Assembly: GCA_964016885.1 (NCBI GenBank)
Contig: OZ024741.1
Span: 340,938,001-341,002,000 of the forward strand
Length of the DNA stretch: 64,000 nucleotides
Source of the DNA: Eledone cirrhosa
Taxonomy: Eukaryota
Reading direction: 5' to 3'
In this document: positions 1-42,735 of the stretch, piece after piece
How the letters are laid out: every line of letters begins with the position of its first letter
Numbering within the stretch: position 1 is the first letter of the stretch
Notes under the pieces: model-generated
What the model was told of the DNA's origin: nothing
What the model saw: only the letters and a program-made list of their open reading frames with translations
The model's database searches: none
Position numbers and translations under genes: made by a program

Positions 1-1452
<1,452 letters not shown>

Positions 1453-1607
1453 TTGTTATACTTTGGGAGGGTCATGTTGCCAATAAGAAACACACGCACC
1501 AGTTGCTTTCACTTCAGTTTACTATATATTTATAAATTTACGAGTTTATAAAGTTATAAATTTCTGGTTGGTTGGTTGGTTCCACAACCAGATAGTTGTT
1601 TATATAT

Positions 1608-1652
1608 AGTCATAGTCCTTTCGTCACACACTCTGTGACCTCTTCAGTGACT
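1608..1652 (-). ncRNA. Minimal type I hammerhead ribozyme
   Basis: Minus strand: AGTCA CTGAAGA GGTCACA GAGTG TGTGAC GAAA GGAC TA TGACT; stems I and II pair. Confidence 0.8.
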
Positions 1653-1864
1653 GGGGATTCCTTTCTTTGTTTCTGTGCCTCTCCTTTGTTCTGTCCTACG
1701 CTATTTTGTTTCTGTGTGTGTGTTGTGTGCTCAGTCTGCGCATGCGCCACATCCGGGTGTCTGTGTGTGTTTATGTTCATTTATCTATTTGTTTATTTAT
1801 TTATTTATTTACATGTTACTGGTTGGTTGTTTGTTCTATGTGTGTGTGTGTTTTCACTTTGTCC

Positions 1865-2069
1865 TTAATTGTAAGTTGTAATGTTGCTGTTCCACTCATA
1901 TTTTCTATTTAATTTTGGTTGTAATTCTTTTATGTTTATTGCCTCTGTAATTTGTCTAAACATTGCATCTTTTCTGTGTGTAGATTCTATTTTTATTTCT
2001 ATGTTCTCTAATTTACCCTTGTGTTCTATCTTAGCATGTTGGTAGAGTACAGATGATTCTTTATTATCT
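1865..2069 (-). pseudogene. Inverted copy of PLE GIY-YIG C-terminal fragment
   Basis: Same peptide DNKESS...ITTYN on the minus strand. Confidence 0.8.
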
Positions 2070-2070
2070 G

Positions 2071-2307
2071 GAACGGATAAATGAACACTGGCGAGACCTT
2101 CAAGATAATAAAGAATCATCTGTACTCTACCAACATGCTAAAATAGAACATAAGGGTAAATTAGAGAACATAGAAATAAAAATAGAATCTACACACAGAA
2201 AAGACGCAATGTTTAGACAAATCACAGAGGCAATAAACATAAAAGAACTACAACCAAAATTAAATAGAAAATATGAGTGGAACAGCAACATCACAACTTA
2301 CAATTAA
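2071..2307 (+). pseudogene. PLE GIY-YIG endonuclease C-terminal fragment
   Basis: ERINEHWRDLQDNKESSVLYQH...RQITEAINIKELQPKLNRKYEW fits the R..EH / S....H / EA..I / LN pattern of Penelope GIY-YIG domains. Confidence 0.8.
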
Positions 2308-2508
2308 GGACAAAATGAAAACACACACGCACATAGAACAAACAACCAACCGGTAACATGTAAATAAACAAATAAATAAACGAATATAAACACACACAGA
2401 CACCCGGATGTGGCGCATGCGCAGACTGAGCACACAACACACACACAGAAACAAAATGGCGTAGGACAGAACAAAGGAGAGGCACAAAAACAAAGAAAAG
2501 AATTTCAA

Positions 2509-2551
2509 GTCACTGAAGAGGTCACAGAATATGTGACGAAAGAACTTTGAC
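2509..2551 (+). ncRNA. Minimal type I hammerhead ribozyme
   Basis: GTCA CTGAAGA GGTCACA GAATA TGTGAC GAAA GAAC TT TGAC. Confidence 0.75.
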
Positions 2552-2761
2552 AATATATAAACAACTACCTGGTTGTGGAACCAACCAATCAACCAGAAAT
2601 TTATAAATTCCTAAATTTATAAATTTATTATAATAAATTGAAGTGAAAGCAGCTGGTGCGTGTGTTTCTTATTGGCAACATGACCATCCCAAAGTATAAC
2701 AATATCGGTCTCAACATACGATTTCAGATGAAGAATTTTGCTAAACAAATTCAGAAACGAA

Positions 2762-5625
<2,864 letters not shown>

Positions 5626-5630
5626 ATATA

Positions 5631-7011
5631 TCATCATCATCATCATCATCGTTTAACGTCCGTGTTCCATGCTTGCATGGGTTTGGACGGGAGTTTTCCC
5701 ACTTGAGGCAAGAGTGGTTGTCTTGCTCGCATAGGACTGTTTGGCGGGTTTTCTACAGTTGGATGCCCTTCCTAACACCAACCACATTTACAGTGTGGGG
5801 CTGGGAGGTTTTTACCGTGTTGCCTACACGGCCACATTACAGCGTGGACTGTCTGGCAGGTTTTCTACAGCTGGATGCCCTTCCTAACACCAACCACATT
5901 TACAGTGTGGGACTGGGACGTTTTTACCGTGTTGCCTACACGGTCACATTACAGCGTGGACTGTGTGTTTTTTTTCGTGACACCTACACGATCTCATTTG
6001 TTTCGGCCTGGATGTTGTGGACCAACATAACTTTACATTGAAAGGGGCGGTGTGGATGGGGTGGGGGTGGTGGGACGGGGGTGTATTTTGTTAGAGATGC
6101 CTACTGACTGTAGTTGGTTTTACTTTGTATTTAGGTAACGCGGGTCTTCTCTGTTACTGAGTACCGCCAAAGGTCTCGGTCCAGTGACATTGTCTTGGAG
6201 AGGTGTAAGTGTGTGAGGTCGGAATTTATCAGCTCGTCCCAGGTTTTTCTGGGTCTGCCTACTCCGTGGCTACCATCTATCTTTATTGCCCTGCACTTTG
6301 TTATACAGCTGTCGTCTTTCATGCGCATCACGTGACCATACCAACGTCGCCTTCTATCGAGTAAACAACATCTGATCCTTCTTATTTCTAATTTTTTCCT
6401 TAGTTCGTTTATGCTTTGCCGTTCGCGTATATTACTATTACACATCCAGCGGAGCATGCAAGCTTCGTTCCTCTCTAGTCTGCGTATATCCTCTGCACAC
6501 AATGCCCAGGTCTCACTGCCATGCAACATTGCTGTTCGTATGCAGGCATCATACAACCTGCCTTTCACTTTTAGGGAGAACCCTTTAGCGGCTAATAGTG
6601 GTATAAGCTCTCTGAACTTTTTCCATCCAGTTCTGACTCTAGCTACTGTACTTTCGGAGCACCCTCCCCCACTGCTGATTTTGTCACCCAGGTAACGGAA
6701 GCTGTCCACTATTTCTATAGAACCCTCTGCGCAGTTGAAAGAGCTAGTATTTTGTGGGCACTTGCTGCTACTTATTGCACCAGAGCACCGGCCACATGTA
6801 AAATCTGTGTTCTTAGTTAGCTTACCTGTGATCCCACTACATCTTTTATGCACCCATACTTTGCATTTGGGACATAAAATGGAGTTTCTACCTACGCCTT
6901 TCCTACACACTGAGCATGGCCATTTCCCGGAAGGGACCGGCGCCTTATTTTCTTTGCTACAAACTAGAACTTTAGTCTTAGCCATGTTAATTTTAAGGCC
7001 TTTTGATTCTA
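5631..7011 (-). mobile_element. 5'-truncated RTE-clade LINE (RT C-terminal part with Cys-rich PHD-like insert, 3' UTR, (GAT)n tail)
   Basis: Minus-strand ORF ESKGLKINMAKTK...VDSFRYLG...MLHGSETW...RWYGHV.R...GRPRKTW...DRDLWR; (CAT)n tail at 5631-5650; GGATGCCCTTCCT motif duplicated in the 3' UTR. Confidence 0.9.
6131..7011 (-). pseudogene. RTE LINE ORF2 C-terminal fragment (open frame)
   Basis: ORF 6131..7144; the N-terminal ~44 aa run into the adjacent PLE UTR and are spurious. Confidence 0.85.
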
Positions 7012-7700
7012 TGCATGCAACAAAATAGAGAGATGGAGAAATAGATAAAGAGAAGAACTTCATGTAAAGAAACAGAGAGAGATATATAGAGAGAGGAAAT
7101 AGATAGAGATAGATATATATAGAGAAAAGTAGGTAGTTGAACATCCGTTGAATGATGTATCAATGATACATTTATTTATTTATTTATTTATTTATTTAGC
7201 TCTAGTATTAATGTAAGGGAGATATATGTGGTTCGGAAAGAAACCAGCCGTTATATATATAGAAAAAATGAAAAGTAACCAGACCTAGGCGAATTTAAAA
7301 ACCCTATGTTTCAATGTAGAGATATTAGTTCGTATAAAAACCAGGCACTATAATGTAAATATCAGTATTCATGAATGAGACACGTATCTAAATGTGTGAA
7401 AAGTAATGATCTTATGTCTAGTTTTAAAAATTCATATGTTTATATGATAACTACAAACATCGATGTGAATTTACGTGATCAACTCTGCAAACTCGTATTT
7501 CACACGGAGAACATTCTCATTGTGCTATAAAAATTTAAGTATACATATATGTGTATATATACACATATATATATAGAGTCTATATTAATTTTAATTTTAA
7601 CAATACTATTCTTGTCTTTACTCTACATGATTATCTATCAAGCAGAAATAGAGAACAGATTTCAATATATTAATAAAAAATATCAGAAACAAAAACAAAA

Positions 7701-16925: not shown

Positions 16926-17442
16926 TAATTATCAGCCATTTCTATCTCCAAATATTTCATCATGCTTTCGCTGTGACCATTCTTCTCTCTCCTTCTACCT
17001 ATTTCGCTATTTTCTACTTTCACGCCTCTTTCTTCCTCTCCCTTTCTCCCTCTCACTTTCACCCCCTCGCCTGACCCTCAAGTAGTTCTTTTCTCACTTA
17101 CAACTGCTGGGATCAGACGTGTGTTTTTTTTTCTCTCGACCACTCAGTCTTGAACTTAAGTTCTCTTATCGAGTGGTCTTGGATTTTCTTACCTTAAGTT
17201 CCTCGCACATTGCTCGGTTTGTTGTTTTTTCACTGTTAACTCTTTTCTTCCCTTTTGTTTTCCTTCCCTCCCTCCTCCCTTTTCCCAATAACTTATCCAG
17301 TTATTGACGCCCTGTGTGGTTGATATTTTGTCTTTAAAGCGTAGAAATATCCGAGATCCCCAGTAGACAACTGATGAGGACCCCCCCATTCTTGCTTTCT
17401 TCTTATTCCCACTCCATTTTAAGATATATATATATGTATATG

Positions 17443-17506
<64 letters not shown>

Positions 17507-17563
17507 TATGTATATGTATATGTATATATATATTTATATATATTTATATGTATATATATATAT

Positions 17564-19191
17564 GCACCATCAAATTCTGACCTGGGTAAACTTAGCAAGA
17601 ACATTCTAGACAGGGTGATACAGCAAATTAAGGACTTGAATTGTTTACCTGGCTTGACCTTGTGGAAGGGAACTGGGGAGGTCATTGAGTGGTTTAATGA
17701 AATTAAATATAACAATAATAATAAATTTATTCAACTAGATATTGCTAACTACTATTCATCCATTACCCCTAATCTACTTAATAAGGCACTAAATTACGCA
17801 TTCAAGCATACAGACCTAACTAGCAATGAAATGCACATTATATTATCGGCAAGGAAAACTTTGATAGAATTTAATAACCAACTATGGACTAGGGCAGATA
17901 GAGATAATAATTTTGACATTACTATGGGATCATCAGACTCAGCTCAGGTAACGGACCTTGTGGGCCTATTTATAATTAATTCGCTGCATAGGAAAATACC
18001 CGGTGTTACCGGAGGTTTATATAGAGATGACATGCTTTTACTTATTGAAAATAATAACTCTGAACTAAATAAGAAAAGAAAACAAATTATACAATTTTTT
18101 AATTACCTTAATCTAAAAATAGAAATTGAGAATAACCATAGAATAGTCAATTTCCTAGACGTAACATTTAATCTCAACACATGTCTTCACTATCCATTTC
18201 ACAAGTTAAATGAAAACTTGAATTATGTCAATTTTAGCTCCAATCACCCCAGATCTGTCAAAAATACTATAGTGAACTCTGTTCAAAAACGTATCTCTAG
18301 AATCTCTTCCAATAAAAATATTTTTGACGAAAAAGCCCAGTATTATAATGAAGCTTTAGCTAGAGCAGGATATAGTGATAAAATTATGTACATCGATAAT
18401 AGACAAACTAACCAAAATAACAACAATTTTAATTACAGTAACAACTTTAACAACTATAATAGAAAGCACTACAATAATTTCAAAAACCAGAAAAGAAATA
18501 GAACTAGAAATATAATATGGTTTGCCCCCCCCCCCCTTTCTCACTAAACATTAAAACCCACATCGCTAAACTATTTTTTAATGCTCTTGACAAACGCTTC
18601 CCTAGAACACATAAGTATCACTCAATTTTTAATAGACATACTATAAAATTAACATACTCGTCCACCAAAAATTTAGCACAAAATATTAATAGAATAAATA
18701 ATAGGAATCTAAAACCTAGCCAAAATACCGAAAATAGCCTAAACAATATTCAACTAAAAAACTGTAACTGTAGAGATAGATCTAAATGTCCGCTAAATAA
18801 CAATTGCTTAGTTAAAAATATAATATACAACTGTAATGTTAGAACTGATTTAAATTCTTTTAATTATGTTGGTTCCACCTCGACAGAATTTAAACTTCGC
18901 TATAATAATCACAAAAATTCTTTCACGGATCCAAATAAAAAATCTTCAACATCGCTGTCAGGGTTACTCTGGCAACTTAAGCATGATAAAGTTGGATATT
19001 CGATGGTTTGGAATATAGTCTCAAAAGGGATTCCTTTTAATTCCTCTTCTGAGACTTGTGACCTCTGCGCGGAGGAGATATTCTTTATATTAAAATCTAA
19101 AAATTCCCTTAATTTACGAACCAATTTATTCAGCTGTTGCAGACATAGATTGAACTCAACATTTAAATATAAATATAAATTTAAGATGTAA
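17564..19191 (+). pseudogene. PLE-1 RT (17564-18547) + GIY-YIG endonuclease (18517-19191), split by a single frameshift in a C12 run
   Basis: Two ORFs collinear with the continuous ORF 25122..26819. Confidence 0.9.
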
Positions 19192-20403
19192 TATAAAATG
19201 TAGTATATTTACTTAAGGTATTTAACTATTTGTGATACTTGGCGATAAATCTTTCGATTCCTTTTTTTTTTTTTTTTTTCTTTTAAACCTTTCTGCATGA
19301 ATATATAATTAATGAGATTAAATAAACTACCCTATAATTGGCGTTGTCCCCAATCTTTTGAATAAATTTTTAAGCTGGATAAACTTCTATAATAAATATA
19401 AGAGCATTTGTAGAATAAGTTTTGAATGAGTTCTGCTAAATAAGGCTTGATGAACAATTTTGGTTTTGTTTGCTTTTGACTCTGATTCTATGACCGATAT
19501 GCGTGGCATACTATGTTCTCTTGCGTCCCTAGATACTCTGTGGAGTGACGAAGATATTCTTGGCGTTTTTAATTTTAATATTGATATCTGTTGTCTACTC
19601 TATGCTTGATCGATGATCATGCAAGTGAGGCTGGAATGTTATTTTAGATGTTAATGTATATCTTATGTTTTATGTCTATATATATGTATATATGTATGTA
19701 AATGTATGTAGGGTGGAATCTTTTCTAACGCATTGAAGTTTTTCATGAAATATAAGAATCAGTGCAGCGTATCACGTAGGTTCACATGTGCGTCTATATT
19801 TATCAACTTGAATTTGAGATAACCTTCTCTTTTCTCTTTTTTCACGAGAATGCATATATACTTATGTTTGAAGTTTTATCTCAGATTTTGCTTATAGACC
19901 TAAGAATTTTTAACTGAGCATGTGGTCATTTTTTTCACACATTATGGATATGTGTCTCATTCATGAATACTGATATTTACATTATAATATCTAATTCATA
20001 AAAATTGATAATTCAAATGGATGAGACATAACATATTTTTAATATATTTTAAATATATCATCTTTCTTTCTTTTTCTCGTATACACTAATTTAACTGTAT
20101 CCCTTCCCTTAACCTCTCACATATACGATGATCATCTGTCAAAAAGCAGCCTACTAGGTTTTTTCACCATCAATGTATTTCTCTCTCTCCTTGTCTCTCT
20201 ATCTCGCTCCGTTGTTTTTCTTTGCATACATCTCTTCATCTTCTTATTTTTATTTGCATACATCTCTTCATCTTCTTCTTCTCATCTTCGTTTTCTTTCT
20301 ATATAACTATCATAACAGTTTCACTACCAAATCAACTTTTTAAAAGGAAGTTGCATTATCACAAGGTATGTCACTAATTATTTATAAAACAGCTTATGTA
20401 TTG

Positions 20404-23917: not shown

Positions 23918-25121
23918 GCTCAAGTATTAATGTAAGGGAGATATATAGAGAGATATAGAGAGATATAGAGAGAGAAAAAAAAAATTTAAAAATATCCAGA
24001 CATATTCGAGGCGTAGAAAACATAGAGAGATATAGAGAGAGAAAAAAAAAATTTAAAAATATCCAGACATATTCGAGGCGTAGAAAACCCTATGTTTTAA
24101 TGTATTAGTATTTATAAAACTTACACTACACTGTAAATATCAGTATTCCTGAATGAAACAAGTATTCACAATGTGTGAAAATTCATTATCTTATGTTTAG
24201 TTTTAAAAATTCACATGTCTATGTGACAGCTACAAATCTCAATGTGAATCCAACTGATTCACTCCGCAAACTCTAAGTTATCGGAAAACATTCTCAATGT
24301 GGTATAAAAATTTGAGCGTATTATTATTCTTGCGATTACTCTACAAGATTATCTATCAAGCAGAAATAGAGAGCAGATTTCAATATACTAATCGAAAATA
24401 TATATTATATTATAAACAAAGATAACAATAATAATAATAATAAGTAAAAATATATAAAAATATAGAATAGAAAACTAACAAAATATTACGAAAGAATATT
24501 ACATAATAAAAATATTGCATATTAAAAATACTACGTATTAAAAAATATTACGTATTAAAGATTTACATATAAAAATTTACATATAAAAATATACATATAA
24601 AAATTTACATATAAAAATTTACATATAAAAATATATAAAAATATTAAAAAAATAAAATTAAAATAAAAATATTATAGAATACTACAATACTAAAAGAATA
24701 AAAGTAAAAATAAAAATAAAAATAAAAATAAAAATGAAAATAAAAATAAAAATAAACCACAAAAAACAACCCTTCAAAGTTAATTGACAATATATTGCCA
24801 AGTTCACTACAAGACAAAGCAAAAATTATCTATCAAATCACATCTAGCAAAGAATATCGTAAAAAGATTATGATGTCCAATAATGTCTACATATGTTCCT
24901 ATGTTTAATATAGAAGTTTATCTAGTGTAAGGTTAATTCAAAAAATTTTTGGAGCATCGGCTTTTAGGGTAGCTTAATTTTTCATGAGGAATGTTTAGAT
25001 AAAAATAAAAATAAATAAAATAAAATAAACAATAAAAAGAGTAAAACAAGGGAATCAAAGATTTAGGAATCAAAAGATTTATCGGCTAGTTCTCATATAA
25101 ATATAAATCAAACTAAATATA

Positions 25122-26819
25122 CTACATTTTAAATTTAAATTTATATTTAAACGTTGAGTTTAATCTATGTTTGCAACAACTGAATAAATTTGTCCGTAGG
25201 TTAAGGGAGTTTTTAGATTTTAGTATAAAGAATATCTCCTCTGTGCAGAGGTCACATGTCTCAGAGGATGAATTAAAAGGAATCCCTCTTGAAACTATAT
25301 TCCAAGCCGTCGAATATCTAACGTTATCTAGCTTAAGTTGCCAGAGTACCCCTGATAGTGCTGTTGAAGATTTTTTATTTGGATCTGTGAAAGAATTCTT
25401 GTGGTTATTATAGCGAAGTTTAAATTCCGTCGATGTGGAACCGACGTAGTTAAAAGAATTAGAGTCAGTATTAACATTACAATTGTATACTATATTTTTA
25501 ACTAAGCAGTTGTTATTTAACGGACATTTAGATCTATCTCTACAGTTACATTTGTTAACTTGTATATTATTTATGCTATTATCAGTAGGTTTTAAGTTCC
25601 TATTATTTATTCTATTAATATTTTGTGCTAAATTTTTGGTGGATGAGTAGGTTAATTTAATTGTATGCCTATTGAAGATTGAGTGATACCTATGTGTTCT
25701 AGGGAAGCGATTATCAAGAGCTTTGAAAAATAATTTAGCGATGTGGGTTTTAATGTTTAGTGAGAAAGGGGGGGGGGGGGCAAACCAAATTATGTTCCTA
25801 GTTCTATTTCTTTTTTGTCCTTTGGAATTATTGTAATGCTTTCTATTATAGTTGTTAATGTTGTTGCCGTAATTAAAAAAGTTGTTACTTTGTTTAGTTT
25901 GTCTATCATTATCTATGTATACAATCTTATCAGCATACCCTGCCCTAGCTAGTGCATCATTATAGTATTGGGCCTTTTCGTCAAAAATCTTTCTATTCGA
26001 CGAGATCCTAGAGATACGTTTTTGGACTGAGTTTACTATAGTGTTTTTGACAGATCTGGGGTGGTTAGAGTTAAAGTTGACATAGTTTAAGTTTTCATTC
26101 AACTTGTGAAAAGGATAGTGGAGACATGTGTTGAGATTTAATGTTATATCTAGGAAATTGACTATTCTATGGTTGTTCTCAATTTCTATTTTAAGGTTAA
26201 AGTAATTAAAAAATTTTGTAATTTGTTTACATTTTCTATTTAGTTCAGGGTTATTATTATTAATAAGTAAAAGCATGTCATCCCTATATAAACCTCCGGT
26301 AGTACCAGGTATTTTCCTATGTAGCGAATTGATTAAAAATAAGCCCACAAGGTCAGTTACCTGAGCTGAGTCGGAAGATCCCATAGTTATGTCAAAATTG
26401 CTATCTCTATCTGCTCTAGTCCATAATTTGTCATTAAATTCTATCAGAGTTTTCCTAGCCGATAATATAATATGCATTTCTTTGCTAGTTAGGTCCGTAT
26501 GTTTGAATGCGTAATTTAGTGCCCTATTTAGTAGACTAGGGGTAATAGAAGAATAATAGTTAGCTATATCAAGTTGAATAAACCTATTATTATTGTCATA
26601 TTTAATTTGCCTAAACCACTCAACAACCTCTCCAGTTCCCTTCCACAAGCTCAGGTTAGATACACAATCCAAGTTCTTAATTTGCAGTATCACCCTGTCA
26701 AGAATGCTTTTACTTAATTTTCCCAGGTCCGATTTTGAAGGTGCGATCAATCTCACTGGCAGGTCATTTTCAAAATTGCTCTTGTGGTCCTTCATATTGA
26801 TCTTCGGTTTCCTGGGCAC
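25122..26819 (-). CDS. PLE reverse transcriptase + GIY-YIG endonuclease (uninterrupted frame, N-terminally truncated, no native ATG)
   Basis: KDHKSNF..P.RLIAP.KSDLGK, LDIANYY, FDITMG, GLYRDD, WFAPPPPFS, CNCRDRSKCPLNNNC, IVY..YVG, CDLC..E, CKH. Confidence 0.9.
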   Translation of the reverse strand: MPRKPKINMKDHKSNFENDLPVRLIAPSKSDLGKLSKSILDRVILQIKNLDCVSNLSLWKGTGEVVEWFRQIKYDNNNRFIQLDIANYYSSITPSLLNRALNYAFKHTDLTSKEMHIILSARKTLIEFNDKLWTRADRDSNFDITMGSSDSAQVTDLVGLFLINSLHRKIPGTTGGLYRDDMLLLINNNNPELNRKCKQITKFFNYFNLKIEIENNHRIVNFLDITLNLNTCLHYPFHKLNENLNYVNFNSNHPRSVKNTIVNSVQKRISRISSNRKIFDEKAQYYNDALARAGYADKIVYIDNDRQTKQSNNFFNYGNNINNYNRKHYNNSKGQKRNRTRNIIWFAPPPPFSLNIKTHIAKLFFKALDNRFPRTHRYHSIFNRHTIKLTYSSTKNLAQNINRINNRNLKPTDNSINNIQVNKCNCRDRSKCPLNNNCLVKNIVYNCNVNTDSNSFNYVGSTSTEFKLRYNNHKNSFTDPNKKSSTALSGVLWQLKLDNVRYSTAWNIVSRGIPFNSSSETCDLCTEEIFFILKSKNSLNLRTNLFSCCKHRLNSTFKYKFKFKM

Positions 26820-27612
26820 GAAAGGTGGTTTATTTTTATTTTTATTTTTATTTTCATTTTTATTTTTATTTTTATTTTTATTTTTATTTTTACTTTTATT
26901 CTTTTAGTATTGTAGTATTCTATAATATTTTTATTTTAATTTTATTTTTTTAATATTTTTATATATTTTTATATGTAAATTTTTATATGTAAATTTTTAT
27001 ATGTATATTTTTATATGTAAATTTTTATATGTAAATCTTTAATACGTAATATTTTTTAATACGTAGTATTTTTAATATGCAATATTTTTATTATGTAATA
27101 TTCTTTCGTAATATTTTGTTAGTTTTCTATTCTATATTTTTATATATTTTTACTTATTATTATTATTATTGTTATCTTTGTTTATAATATAATATATATT
27201 TTCGATTAGTATATTGAAATCTGCTCTCTATTTCTGCTTGATAGATAATCTTGTAGAGTAATCGCAAGAATAATAATACGCTCAAATTTTTATACCACAT
27301 TGAGAATGTTTTCCGATAACTTAGAGTTTGCGGAGTGAATCAGTTGGATTCACATTGAGATTTGTAGCTGTCACATAGACATGTGAATTTTTAAAACTAA
27401 ACATAAGATAATGAATTTTCACACATTGTGAATACTTGTTTCATTCAGGAATACTGATATTTACAGTGTAGTGTAAGTTTTATAAATACTAATACATTAA
27501 AACATAGGGTTTTCTACGCCTCGAATATGTCTGGATATTTTTAAATTTTTTTTTTCTCTCTCTATATCTCTCTATATCTCTCTATATATCTCCCTTACAT
27601 TAATACTTGAGC

Positions 27613-29398: not shown

Positions 29399-29663
29399 GT
29401 AGACATTACAATACAACGGGAAGAAACATAATAGTACCACTGATGATGTCACAGATGTGTGACGAAAGAACTTTGATAGACATATATATATTTATATCTG
29501 TATTTTTAACCGTTGGTCAATCAATGATAAACATTGATTGTCAGATAAACTAACTATGGAGATATAAAATATACAGAATTGAAAACCAATACAAACCAAA
29601 CTGAGTGTGTTTTATTATTATTTCTGGCAACGTTATAACAATATAACCCTCCCCAAATATAAC

Positions 29664-40850: not shown

Positions 40851-42735
40851 CATTAAATTCAAACCCAGACAACAGATTCCTACAAAAACTCCGTAGCAAA
40901 TTAACAGAGTATGAAAACACCAACGACATCATGGTGCACTCGGACAAAACTGGTAACCTCTACTTCGTCAACCCCGACAGATACCACACACTGATCAGGA
41001 ATAGCCTAAACTCCACCTATAAAAAGGCTAACCATTCAAGTACCGAGGACATAAATCGAAATGGACAACAAATTAACTCCAGCATCGGGGTCGCCGACCG
41101 CACCGACCCCTAGACCCACGGACTCCCTACTTCACACTGAAGGACCACAAATCCGATTTCGACCGTAAACCATCCATCAGGCTTATAAACCCAACGAAGT
41201 CGGACATAGGGAGAATCAGTTAAAAAAATCCTAGACCGAGTTATACCAAAAGTTAAGCAAAACGCGAGACTTAGCCTATTGGTCAACATCCAGGAAGTAA
41301 TCTCATGGTTCAGCAATATGGAGGACAAACGAGACACAAAATTCATCCAGTTTGACATAAAGAGTTACTATGCTTCAATTACCTTACCGCTCCTTACGGC
41401 CGCCTTGGACTTTGCCGAAACACTCACGCCCATCACCGACCAGGAAAGAAATATCATCCTCCACGCCAGGAAGACAGTCCTACTCTTCAACAACTCCAAA
41501 TGGATAAAGAGAGCTTCTGACTCCCCCTTCGACGTCAGTATGGGCGCGACGGATTCGGCTGAGGTCACTGATCTTATAGGATTATTCCTACTATTTAAAC
41601 TCGCCAAAATGTTTCCTGCATTCAGCGGTAGATTGTACCGTGATGATGGGTTCGTTACTCTCAAAGGGTACAACCCCAGTAGTACAGACAGGGTCTGTAA
41701 CCAATTAATCAGCTTCTTCCGCGACTGGGGATTTAAAATAACCCTACAAACGTCCCTAACCCGAGTAAACTTCCTGGACGTTACCCTTAACCTCGATAAT
41801 GATCTGTACTACCCATACAGGAAACCAAACGACAACCTGCATTACATCCACCGCCGGTCGAACCATCCTAGAAACATCACCAATAACCTGGTTAAAAACA
41901 TCTCCCTCCGCATATCTCGTTTGTCCGCTAATAAGCAGATATTCGATGAACACGCGCCTCATTACAACCAGGCCCTCAAGCGGAGTGGCTTCCGGGAGGA
42001 AATATCCTATTATCCAGCTTCCATTAGCGGAACCAGCAGGCGACACCGCCGCTCACGCAACGTAACGTGGTTCAATCCTCCCCCACAATGCCGAGGTGAC
42101 AACACCTATCGGGAAAATCTTCTTTAGGCTCATCGAAAAACACTTCCCACTACAACACCGCTACCACAACATAATCAACAAAAACACCATCAAACTCTCC
42201 TACAGCACCACACCTAACTTTGCACAAAACATCGTCTCCTCTAACAACAAAAAACTCAACCCCTATGGAAGAAATAACCTAGACATCAGTGGAGAGCCGA
42301 CCAGGAGGTGTAACTGACCTGATAGATCCCTTTGCCTCCTCAACAACAGATGCCGAGATCGTAATGTGATCTACCAGTGCAACGTGAGGACGGACACCTC
42401 CAACAAAGCTTATATAGGATTAACGGCTTGTGACTTCAAGACCCGGCTCTACCTACACAGACATACTTTCCGAAACCCGACCCGGCGTCACGCCACTACA
42501 CTTTCGGGTCACATCTGGGACCTCACAGATAATAATATAACCTACAATCTCACTTGGAGCTTACTGTCCAGAGCTAACTGTTACACGGGAGGACGCCGTC
42601 CGTGTAACTTATGCTCGGAGGAAACATTACAAATGCTGTTTTCGAAGGACCAACTCCTAAACAAGAAAAACGAATTAGTAACTGCATGCAAACACTGATT
42701 GCGTAGGACTTACCTCGCCCTCAAACCCCATAATG
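40851..42735 (+). pseudogene. PLE-3 RT + GIY-YIG ORF with frameshifts/stops and an in-frame UGA at a conserved Cys
   Basis: SDKTGNLY, LKDHK, FIQFDIKSYY, FDVSMG, RLYRDDG, WFNPP, CN*PDRSLC, IYQC..YIG, CNLCSEE, CKH. Confidence 0.9.

Follow-up and report, generated by a model that had tools for sequence, protein, structure and literature searches.

How does one inverted repeat come to carry two arms that trace to two different sources? The question is raised by the window analysed here, a 64,000-nucleotide stretch of the Eledone cirrhosa genome (assembly GCA_964016885.1, contig OZ024741.1, positions 340,938,001 to 341,002,000), which starts in a (TA)n array and has a 1.3-kb inverted repeat, or fold-back, embedded in that array. 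For the head-to-head repeats of Penelope elements, passages of two papers offer different routes: one antisense template that primes itself (PMC3846280), or primers supplied by both cut strands (PMC11167929). With thousands of young copies in resolvable subfamilies, the mechanism by which fold-backs form becomes a question that can be approached by counting in this genome. An initial annotation, made from the sequence of the locus, had proposed that both arms were copied from two RNAs in one insertion, and the evidence bearing on that proposal is set out below.

The locus and its element

The fold-back and its surroundings consist of the following features, numbered from the first letter of the window.

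1..1449, no strand: (TA)n target array, left flank, with T-run interruptions on the + strand
1450..2069, - strand: left arm, a 5′-truncated Penelope-like copy without a tail, assigned to subfamily A, sub-type A1, by alignment, tree and markers
1608..1652, - strand: left-arm hammerhead-like motif (core CUGAAGA, stem II, loop GAGUG, GAAA), by motif and fold
1865..2068, - strand: left-arm coding part, 67 codons plus stop, peptide identical to that of the right arm (arm alignment)
2069..2070, no strand: head-to-head junction, blunt (2069 / 2070), with an imperfect 3/4-base overlap (arm alignment)
2070..2760, + strand: right arm, a 5′-truncated copy with a 56-nt tail, of the older subfamily B type at every marker site from 2142 on
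2108..2108, + strand: single A-type base near the junction on the B arm (Asn; the B-type base gives Ser)
2508..2552, + strand: right-arm hammerhead-like motif, loop GAAUA
2706..2760, + strand: tail, the first 56 nt of the element unit, on the right arm only
2761..5620, no strand: (TA)n target array, right flank, with the same interruption polarity as the left flank

The left arm contains the last 67 codons of a GIY-YIG domain, then a stop codon and then the 3′ pseudo-LTR, and the 5′ ends of the two arms lie 33 nt apart in element coordinates. The array that holds them is unstable, with a 4.76-kb tandem duplicate and a second small fold-back. Located 4,763 bp upstream is a second copy of the entire fold-back, its arms 100% identical (G000:C2:340934687-340935997; L031 6687-7997), which by its sequence is a recent tandem duplication or an assembly duplication; the (TA)n flanking this duplicate shows many slippage indels relative to the present locus. 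The small fold-back, of the same family and in the same array, lies 1.1 kb upstream of the duplicate (L031 5295-5600; G000:C2:340933295) and has one tailed and one tailless arm with 1 difference in 80. Perfect local inverted repeats other than this Penelope family were also observed upstream of the window (L031 ~2950-3300 and L032 ~1780-1870).

Longer copies in the same genome (3.0 Gb) comprise a 4.1-kb unit with one ORF encoding a reverse transcriptase (RT), a CxxxxCxxC linker and a GIY-YIG endonuclease, and the coding part inside the window covers only the last 67-78 codons. Evidence for the RT in long copies comes from a YVDD motif, an RT match and a weak Pfam RVT_1 match on one long copy, and that for the GIY-YIG domain from VVY..YIG with the conserved E, R and N and a weak I-TevI match (E=0.12); a Pfam search with the 90-aa peptides gave no match. 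In 20 aligned proteins, C297, C302 and C305 of the linker between RT and endonuclease are invariant, as are C324, H351, H367 and H372 of the CCHH in the GIY-YIG domain, with the second cysteine in most rows. An extra Cx2-5CxxC motif between RT and endonuclease is given as a Neptune/Nematis feature in a passage of PMC8557442, and the element is, on its sequence, an endonuclease-positive (EN+) Penelope-like retroelement of Neptune/Nematis type, the type being assigned by this linker motif rather than by placement of the clade in a tree with named members. The partial tandems of the pseudo-LTR, the inverted 5′ copy and the tail on one end are all present in this element.

A hammerhead-like core with stems I and II lies in the pseudo-LTR and is conserved among copies by motif and fold; an Rfam search for hammerheads returned no match, just hairpin-shaped chance ones under the gathering score. 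We call the motif hammerhead-like after a familiar pattern and its predicted fold. Another such motif, about 85% like that of this element, was observed in the window at 29438-29488, outside any matching copy, and probably belongs to another Penelope family or to a retrozyme. Frames at 17423-19188 (+), 25125-26903 (-) and 41210-42124 (+) are presumably RT-like frames of another Penelope-like family, to go by known motifs. The segments 17564-19262 and 25065-26744 are 86% identical in inverted orientation, and a 342-aa frame at 6134-7159 (-) has a PHD finger and the C-terminus of a LINE-like RT.

The family numbers more than 2,700 copies, in (TA)n (exact 38-mer counts of 1,548 + 1,185 + 5 places), and its sole named animal relative among 113 matches is an uncharacterised protein of Octopus bimaculoides with 56% identity. 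Near-identical words of the family were also seen in public runs X4-X20, labelled as 15 other organisms, and would derive either from close relatives or from transfer; one low-depth contig from a public run of organism B carries A-type bases.

Differences between the arms

The arms share 67 codons (2104-2304 on the + strand of the right arm and 2068-1868 on the - strand of the left) that encode the same peptide and differ at six positions, all of them synonymous: AAA/AAG, CAT/CAC, GAC/GAT, ATC/ATT, CTA/TTA and ATC/ATT, right arm first. The initial annotation had reported precisely this pattern, along with a hammerhead-like motif whose core and stem II are kept while loop bases differ, and arm comparison and folding agree on the latter as well: the core CUGAAGA..GAAA and stem II (GUCACA/UGUGAC) are identical between the arms, and loop II reads GAGUG in the left arm and GAAUA in the right. 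The peptides are identical because the right arm has the A-type base at 2108. Over the full arms, 36 substitutions were counted in 607 aligned bases, plus indels.

Neutral decay had been expected to give mostly non-synonymous changes, and so it does in the 47 other fold-backs for which coding differences between arms were counted, with 106 synonymous against 321 non-synonymous (25% synonymous) overall and 32 against 88 in the same 67 codons. Relative to the ratio in these fold-backs, the six out of six synonymous differences at this locus have a P of about 2-4e-4.

Two source subfamilies

The copies compared here come from a sample of 364 loci with 563 distinct segments, a minority of the family, part of which was chosen by likeness to the two arms and part by position on contig C1 via exact marker patterns; sampling through such patterns biases the frequencies at two marker sites. 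Before counting, we removed the tandem duplicate of this locus as well as one member of a segmental duplicate pair. The copies form a ladder with old lineages at one end, young A at the other, and B followed by intermediates between them. In the tree, the left arm falls within A1, a small sub-type of A, and the right arm within a B branch; the copies nearest to the left arm are 1.4% away. A sister relation of the two arms is rejected (AU p=2.7e-5; 41 rows), and the arms are discordant at 15 of 23 lineage markers. Judged by their sequences, the left arm is a member of the young subfamily A and the right arm of the older subfamily B.

Across 685 codons, the comparison of A with B yields 23 synonymous and 16 non-synonymous codon differences, a ratio that departs from the 25% synonymous of neutral decay (Fisher p=2e-5). 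Because the A/B ratio is 23:16 and that in fold-back arms 106:321, the synonymous excess points to selection between source lineages. The marker discordance, the AU test and the Fisher test together bear out the earlier claim that the arms were copied from two separately evolving lineages. Since they belong to two lineages, the locus is also no sequencing fold-back artefact of one template, as had been argued. The arms do fall into different subfamilies, but not all six synonymous sites are diagnostic of these: four are clean A/B markers (2142, 2151, 2205 and 2223), one, at 2248, reflects a minority variant, and at 2292/1880 the left arm has its base almost to itself. As a set, the six variants are not private to the locus.

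Fold-backs across the genome

A head-to-head partner is present in 90 of the 164 positionally sampled copies with both ends visible. Exactly one arm is tailed in 101 of 105 fold-backs, a rule that this locus obeys with its tailless left and tailed right arm; solo copies are tailed in 43 cases and not in 33. The shorter arm can be either one (37 vs 45), and snap-back copying of a tailless cDNA was rejected as an origin, as it cannot yield a tailed arm and the tailed arm is the shorter in 37 of 90. Near-symmetric 5′ ends, within 35 nt, occur in 10 of 104 other fold-backs. Exactly symmetric 5′ ends were observed in several, among them L213, L215, L219 and L107.

Partners were compared in 65 other fold-backs with at least ten informative sites. 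Marker discordance is 2.1% between partners; it rises to 12.6% when the partner is replaced by a random same-class copy and to 38% with any copy, and two or more rare bases are shared by 37% of partners, against 0.5%. Mixed lineages occur in none of these 65 (upper bound 4.5%). When the 82 fold-backs of the final set, all with sufficient markers, are ranked, this locus stands first with 15/23 discordant sites, followed by one with 8/33 and the rest with at most 3/18, and it alone shows a whole-arm mismatch (0 of the 81 others). Fold-back arms, to judge from these markers, normally come from one source, a pattern compatible with one RNA or with two RNAs of the same source. The present locus breaks this pattern in its markers (15/23), in the AU test (p=2.7e-5) and in its 6:0 synonymous differences.

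Candidates for further mixed pairs were rejected. C1:89107862/89112224 and C1:120599961/120603550 have same-lineage arms with one recurrent site each, and finer mismatches at L066, L044, L014, L092, L101, L122, L089 and L094 come without a coherent second haplotype. Homogenisation near fold-back centres was not seen in nine near-symmetric loci (10/720 vs about 1.9% further out). Very young fold-backs were observed at L219 (G000:C1:110473542) and L069 (G000:C4:324713732), with arms 0.1% and 0.6% apart and 12 and 26 shared rare bases, respectively, and these shared bases in near-identical arms indicate that divergent sources were still mobilised recently.

Arm ages and private bases

Rare bases number 3 in 526 (0.57%) in the left arm and 7 in 582 (1.2%) in the right, a difference that is not significant (binomial p=0.22); the pooled loads are 0.62% for A1 copies, 0.98% for the right arm's B branch and 1.12% for all B. 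Each arm's mutation load thus appears to fit its own lineage. Within fold-backs, arms are 1.25-1.3% apart in A1 (2 loci) and 2.1-2.8% apart in the right arm's B branch (3 loci). The closest B fold-back arms are 0.8% apart and, because some are this close, B and A activity overlapped.

Among the sampled copies, none holds more than two of the nine private bases of the right arm or more than two of the five of the left; two places share part of one right-arm private cluster and nothing else, and the right-arm tail has no other place in the genome within 2 mismatches. This absence of donors fits in-place mutation together with the arrival of A1 while it was active; a decayed, lost B source would look alike, so the evidence is indirect.

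Clues to overwriting

Position 2108 is the only right-arm marker 5′ of 2142, with A in 56 of 57 A copies and G in 126 of 129 B copies. Genome-wide, A was found there in 34 places (two being this locus and its duplicate) against G in 1,146, and 2108-A recurs in about 2.7% of B-type copies. The other 32 places are dispersed among B and intermediate copies, and three of these, too, lie close to a junction. Either the first 39-72 nt of the right arm derive from A or the A-type base at 2108 arose by recurrent mutation, and the base may serve as a weak clue to overwriting. A separate B lineage with 2108-A was considered and rejected, since the 30 such copies listed are dispersed and contain none of the clusters private to the right arm.

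An insertion in five pieces at G000:C1:29029351 (L345 1052-4125) has a left B arm with an internal A-type patch, and its partner arm stays B. The patch covers eight marker sites and 330-580 nt and is the one clear mosaic among 355 copies scanned, which makes this the best additional locus for the question of templates; outside it, the arms are about 2% apart, older than typical A copies. Because this B arm has an A-type patch, it follows that A sequence gets written over B copies. A change cluster at reference positions 3277-3282 of the partner arm was dismissed as a second patch, being a local mutation. An A-type copy with three consecutive B-type markers was also observed (L263 2064-5001; G000:C1:106549163), which would carry either a short patch or the ancestral state. 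Independent copies lie side by side in (TA)n at L106, L053 and L047, those at L106 being of different lineages and 42 nt apart.

Origin of the mixed fold-back

What is directly seen at this locus is the subfamily assignment, the head-to-head layout, and one tailless and one tailed end. By the sequence evidence, two templates for the two arms hold, and the best reading, which we hold with a modest leaning towards its being correct, is that a resident B copy was later joined by a reverse-transcribed A RNA. A B copy, either solo or part of an ordinary B+B fold-back, would already have been in the (TA)n array, and A1 RNA would later have been reverse-transcribed from a nick to its left. The resulting A1 cDNA would have extended from the tailless start site to the present junction, where it would have replaced an earlier left arm by homology or joined the resident copy. 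The broken strand of the resident copy may also have primed on the A1 RNA, in a twin-priming-like manner, and so gained the A-type base at 2108.

This two-step origin is favoured because mixed arms are exceptional (1/82 with a whole-arm mismatch, partners being normally single-source), because the loads match their own lineages and the arm distances of A1 and B-branch fold-backs differ, because neither arm's private bases have a genomic donor, and because A has replaced B at G000:C1:29029351, (TA)n can receive adjacent copies and this array is prone to rearrangement. Also counted in its favour are statements, in passages of the respective papers, that Penelope enzymes nick AT-rich DNA, their own pLTR included (PMC11167929), and that L1 twin-priming breakpoints fall within a few bases of each other (PMC11702581). 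Against it stand the arm-age difference at p=0.22 and the overlap of B and A activity, the one-tail rule, typical of single events and expected of two independent copies in about half of cases, 5′ ends as near-symmetric as in 10/104 ordinary fold-backs, and the dependence of the 2108 clue on one site that recurs in about 2.7% of B-type copies. No pre-insertion allele was seen either, in public runs that carry little information on this locus. A single event or an inherited B+B structure would better account for the tail rule and the symmetric ends, the two main arguments against a plain side-by-side fusion.

The single event proposed by the initial annotation would require one integration complex with two RNAs, A1 and B, each cut strand priming one arm, and a final B-to-A1 switch near the junction. 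We regard this as a minority possibility, unlikely though worth keeping in view. One tailed and one tailless arm, as in 101/105 fold-backs, the symmetric ends and the overlapping activity of the lineages all agree with it; the Anolis enzyme, a predicted dimer in passages of PMC11167929, starts RT at two sites and cleaves as well as extends both strands; and the A patch at C1:29029351 could represent a double template switch, internal template jumps being common in the family. However, no other informative fold-back is mixed (0/65, upper bound 4.5%; 0/81 for whole arms), the right arm has a B-age load and no source copy, and at C1:29029351 the arms diverge by about 2% beyond the patch, which makes them older than typical A copies. 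The claim of one event with two RNAs thus loses ground to the 65 single-source fold-backs, the arm ages and the A patch in a B arm; an inter-template switch, the annotation's second option, may be a candidate for the mixed arms. A broader version, that each Penelope complex normally carries two RNAs of the same source, one per cut strand, with this locus a rare two-subfamily case and the C1:29029351 patch a second trace of switching between co-packaged RNAs, is likewise doubtful.

A change at the DNA level, in which the left arm of a B+B fold-back was converted by an ectopic A1 copy, or neighbours were fused by hairpin-driven deletion or recombination, is rather improbable. With it, both the tail rule and the symmetric junction would simply be inherited; one B arm does hold an A patch of 330-580 nt, and the array around the palindrome is unstable and contains a tandem duplicate. 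It also has a reported precedent in a LINE whose break was repaired by conversion with other LINEs. However, the A tract spans every marker site of the left arm (at least 546 of 620 nt), no DNA donor was seen (two at most of the left arm's five private bases in any copy), and there is but one clear patch in 355 copies, with no general homogenisation near fold-back centres.

Very little credence can be given to a composite source, with A and B units in tandem, whose single RNA would have supplied both arms: partial tandems are the normal source form (also in a passage of PMC11167929) and the L106 neighbours, 42 nt from each other, are of different lineages, but no A+B tandem was found among 18 same-strand neighbour pairs with marker sites, nor any source with the private bases. 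An assembly or library chimera that joined two real loci via homology is just as hard to credit, for while no contig crosses the junction in 6 distinct public runs and the unit is tandemly duplicated with arms 100% identical, the best run holds 69% of the words when 85% of 31-mers occur in other copies, the runs are probably of another individual, array polarity does not change from one flank to the other, the locus conforms to the tail rule and the duplicate's array differs by many slippage indels.

The locus is then a rare chimera of a known kind of element, for which the two-RNA reading is possible, not likeliest. If the mixed locus arose in one step, it would prove two RNAs and, should the two-RNA reading be true, supply the first proof from a genome that Penelope inverted repeats form by a two-RNA, two-primer mechanism. 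If it arose in the two steps favoured here, young copies overwrite old ones and so blur subfamily dating.

Comparison with known systems

Replacement between subfamilies of LINEs and SINEs, by gene conversion or cDNA recombination, is said to place young sequence over an older resident copy or to join it to one; in the present case an entire arm of an inverted repeat would be involved. No description of a Penelope fold-back with mixed subfamilies turned up in a literature search that covered mainly open-access papers; insertion structures relevant to novelty may be shown in the supplements of PMC11167929 and PMC8557442.

The inverted copy and the one-sided tail are already known for Penelope-like elements from passages of PMC8557442 and PMC3846280. 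The same passages describe EN+ elements, including the Neptune/Nematis type, that are like the present one in their RT, CxxxxCxxC linker and GIY-YIG domain with CCHH, and in their partial tandems, pseudo-LTR with a hammerhead-like motif, inverted 5′-truncated copy, one-end tail and (TA)n targets. The tail is 56 nt here and 30-40 in those elements, and inverted arms from two subfamilies, as found here, are undescribed in these passages. For Poseidon of Anolis carolinensis (PAc), an element of another clade, passages of PMC11167929 report two RT start sites that define the tail, each end being used once in 101/105 fold-backs here, and cutting and extension of both strands at AT-rich targets, as here; the in vitro work described in them leaves one and two RNAs undistinguished.

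Among L1 elements, chimeric bridges from two synchronous insertions have been described (in passages of bioRxiv 10.1101/2024.08.27.596794), whereas the present locus has no sign of translocation, both flanks sharing the same array polarity. Twin priming of L1, in passages of PMC11702581, likewise joins two primed strands head to head with breakpoints close to each other; however, it joins non-overlapping pieces of one RNA, while here both arms cover the same 3′ region and come from different subfamilies.
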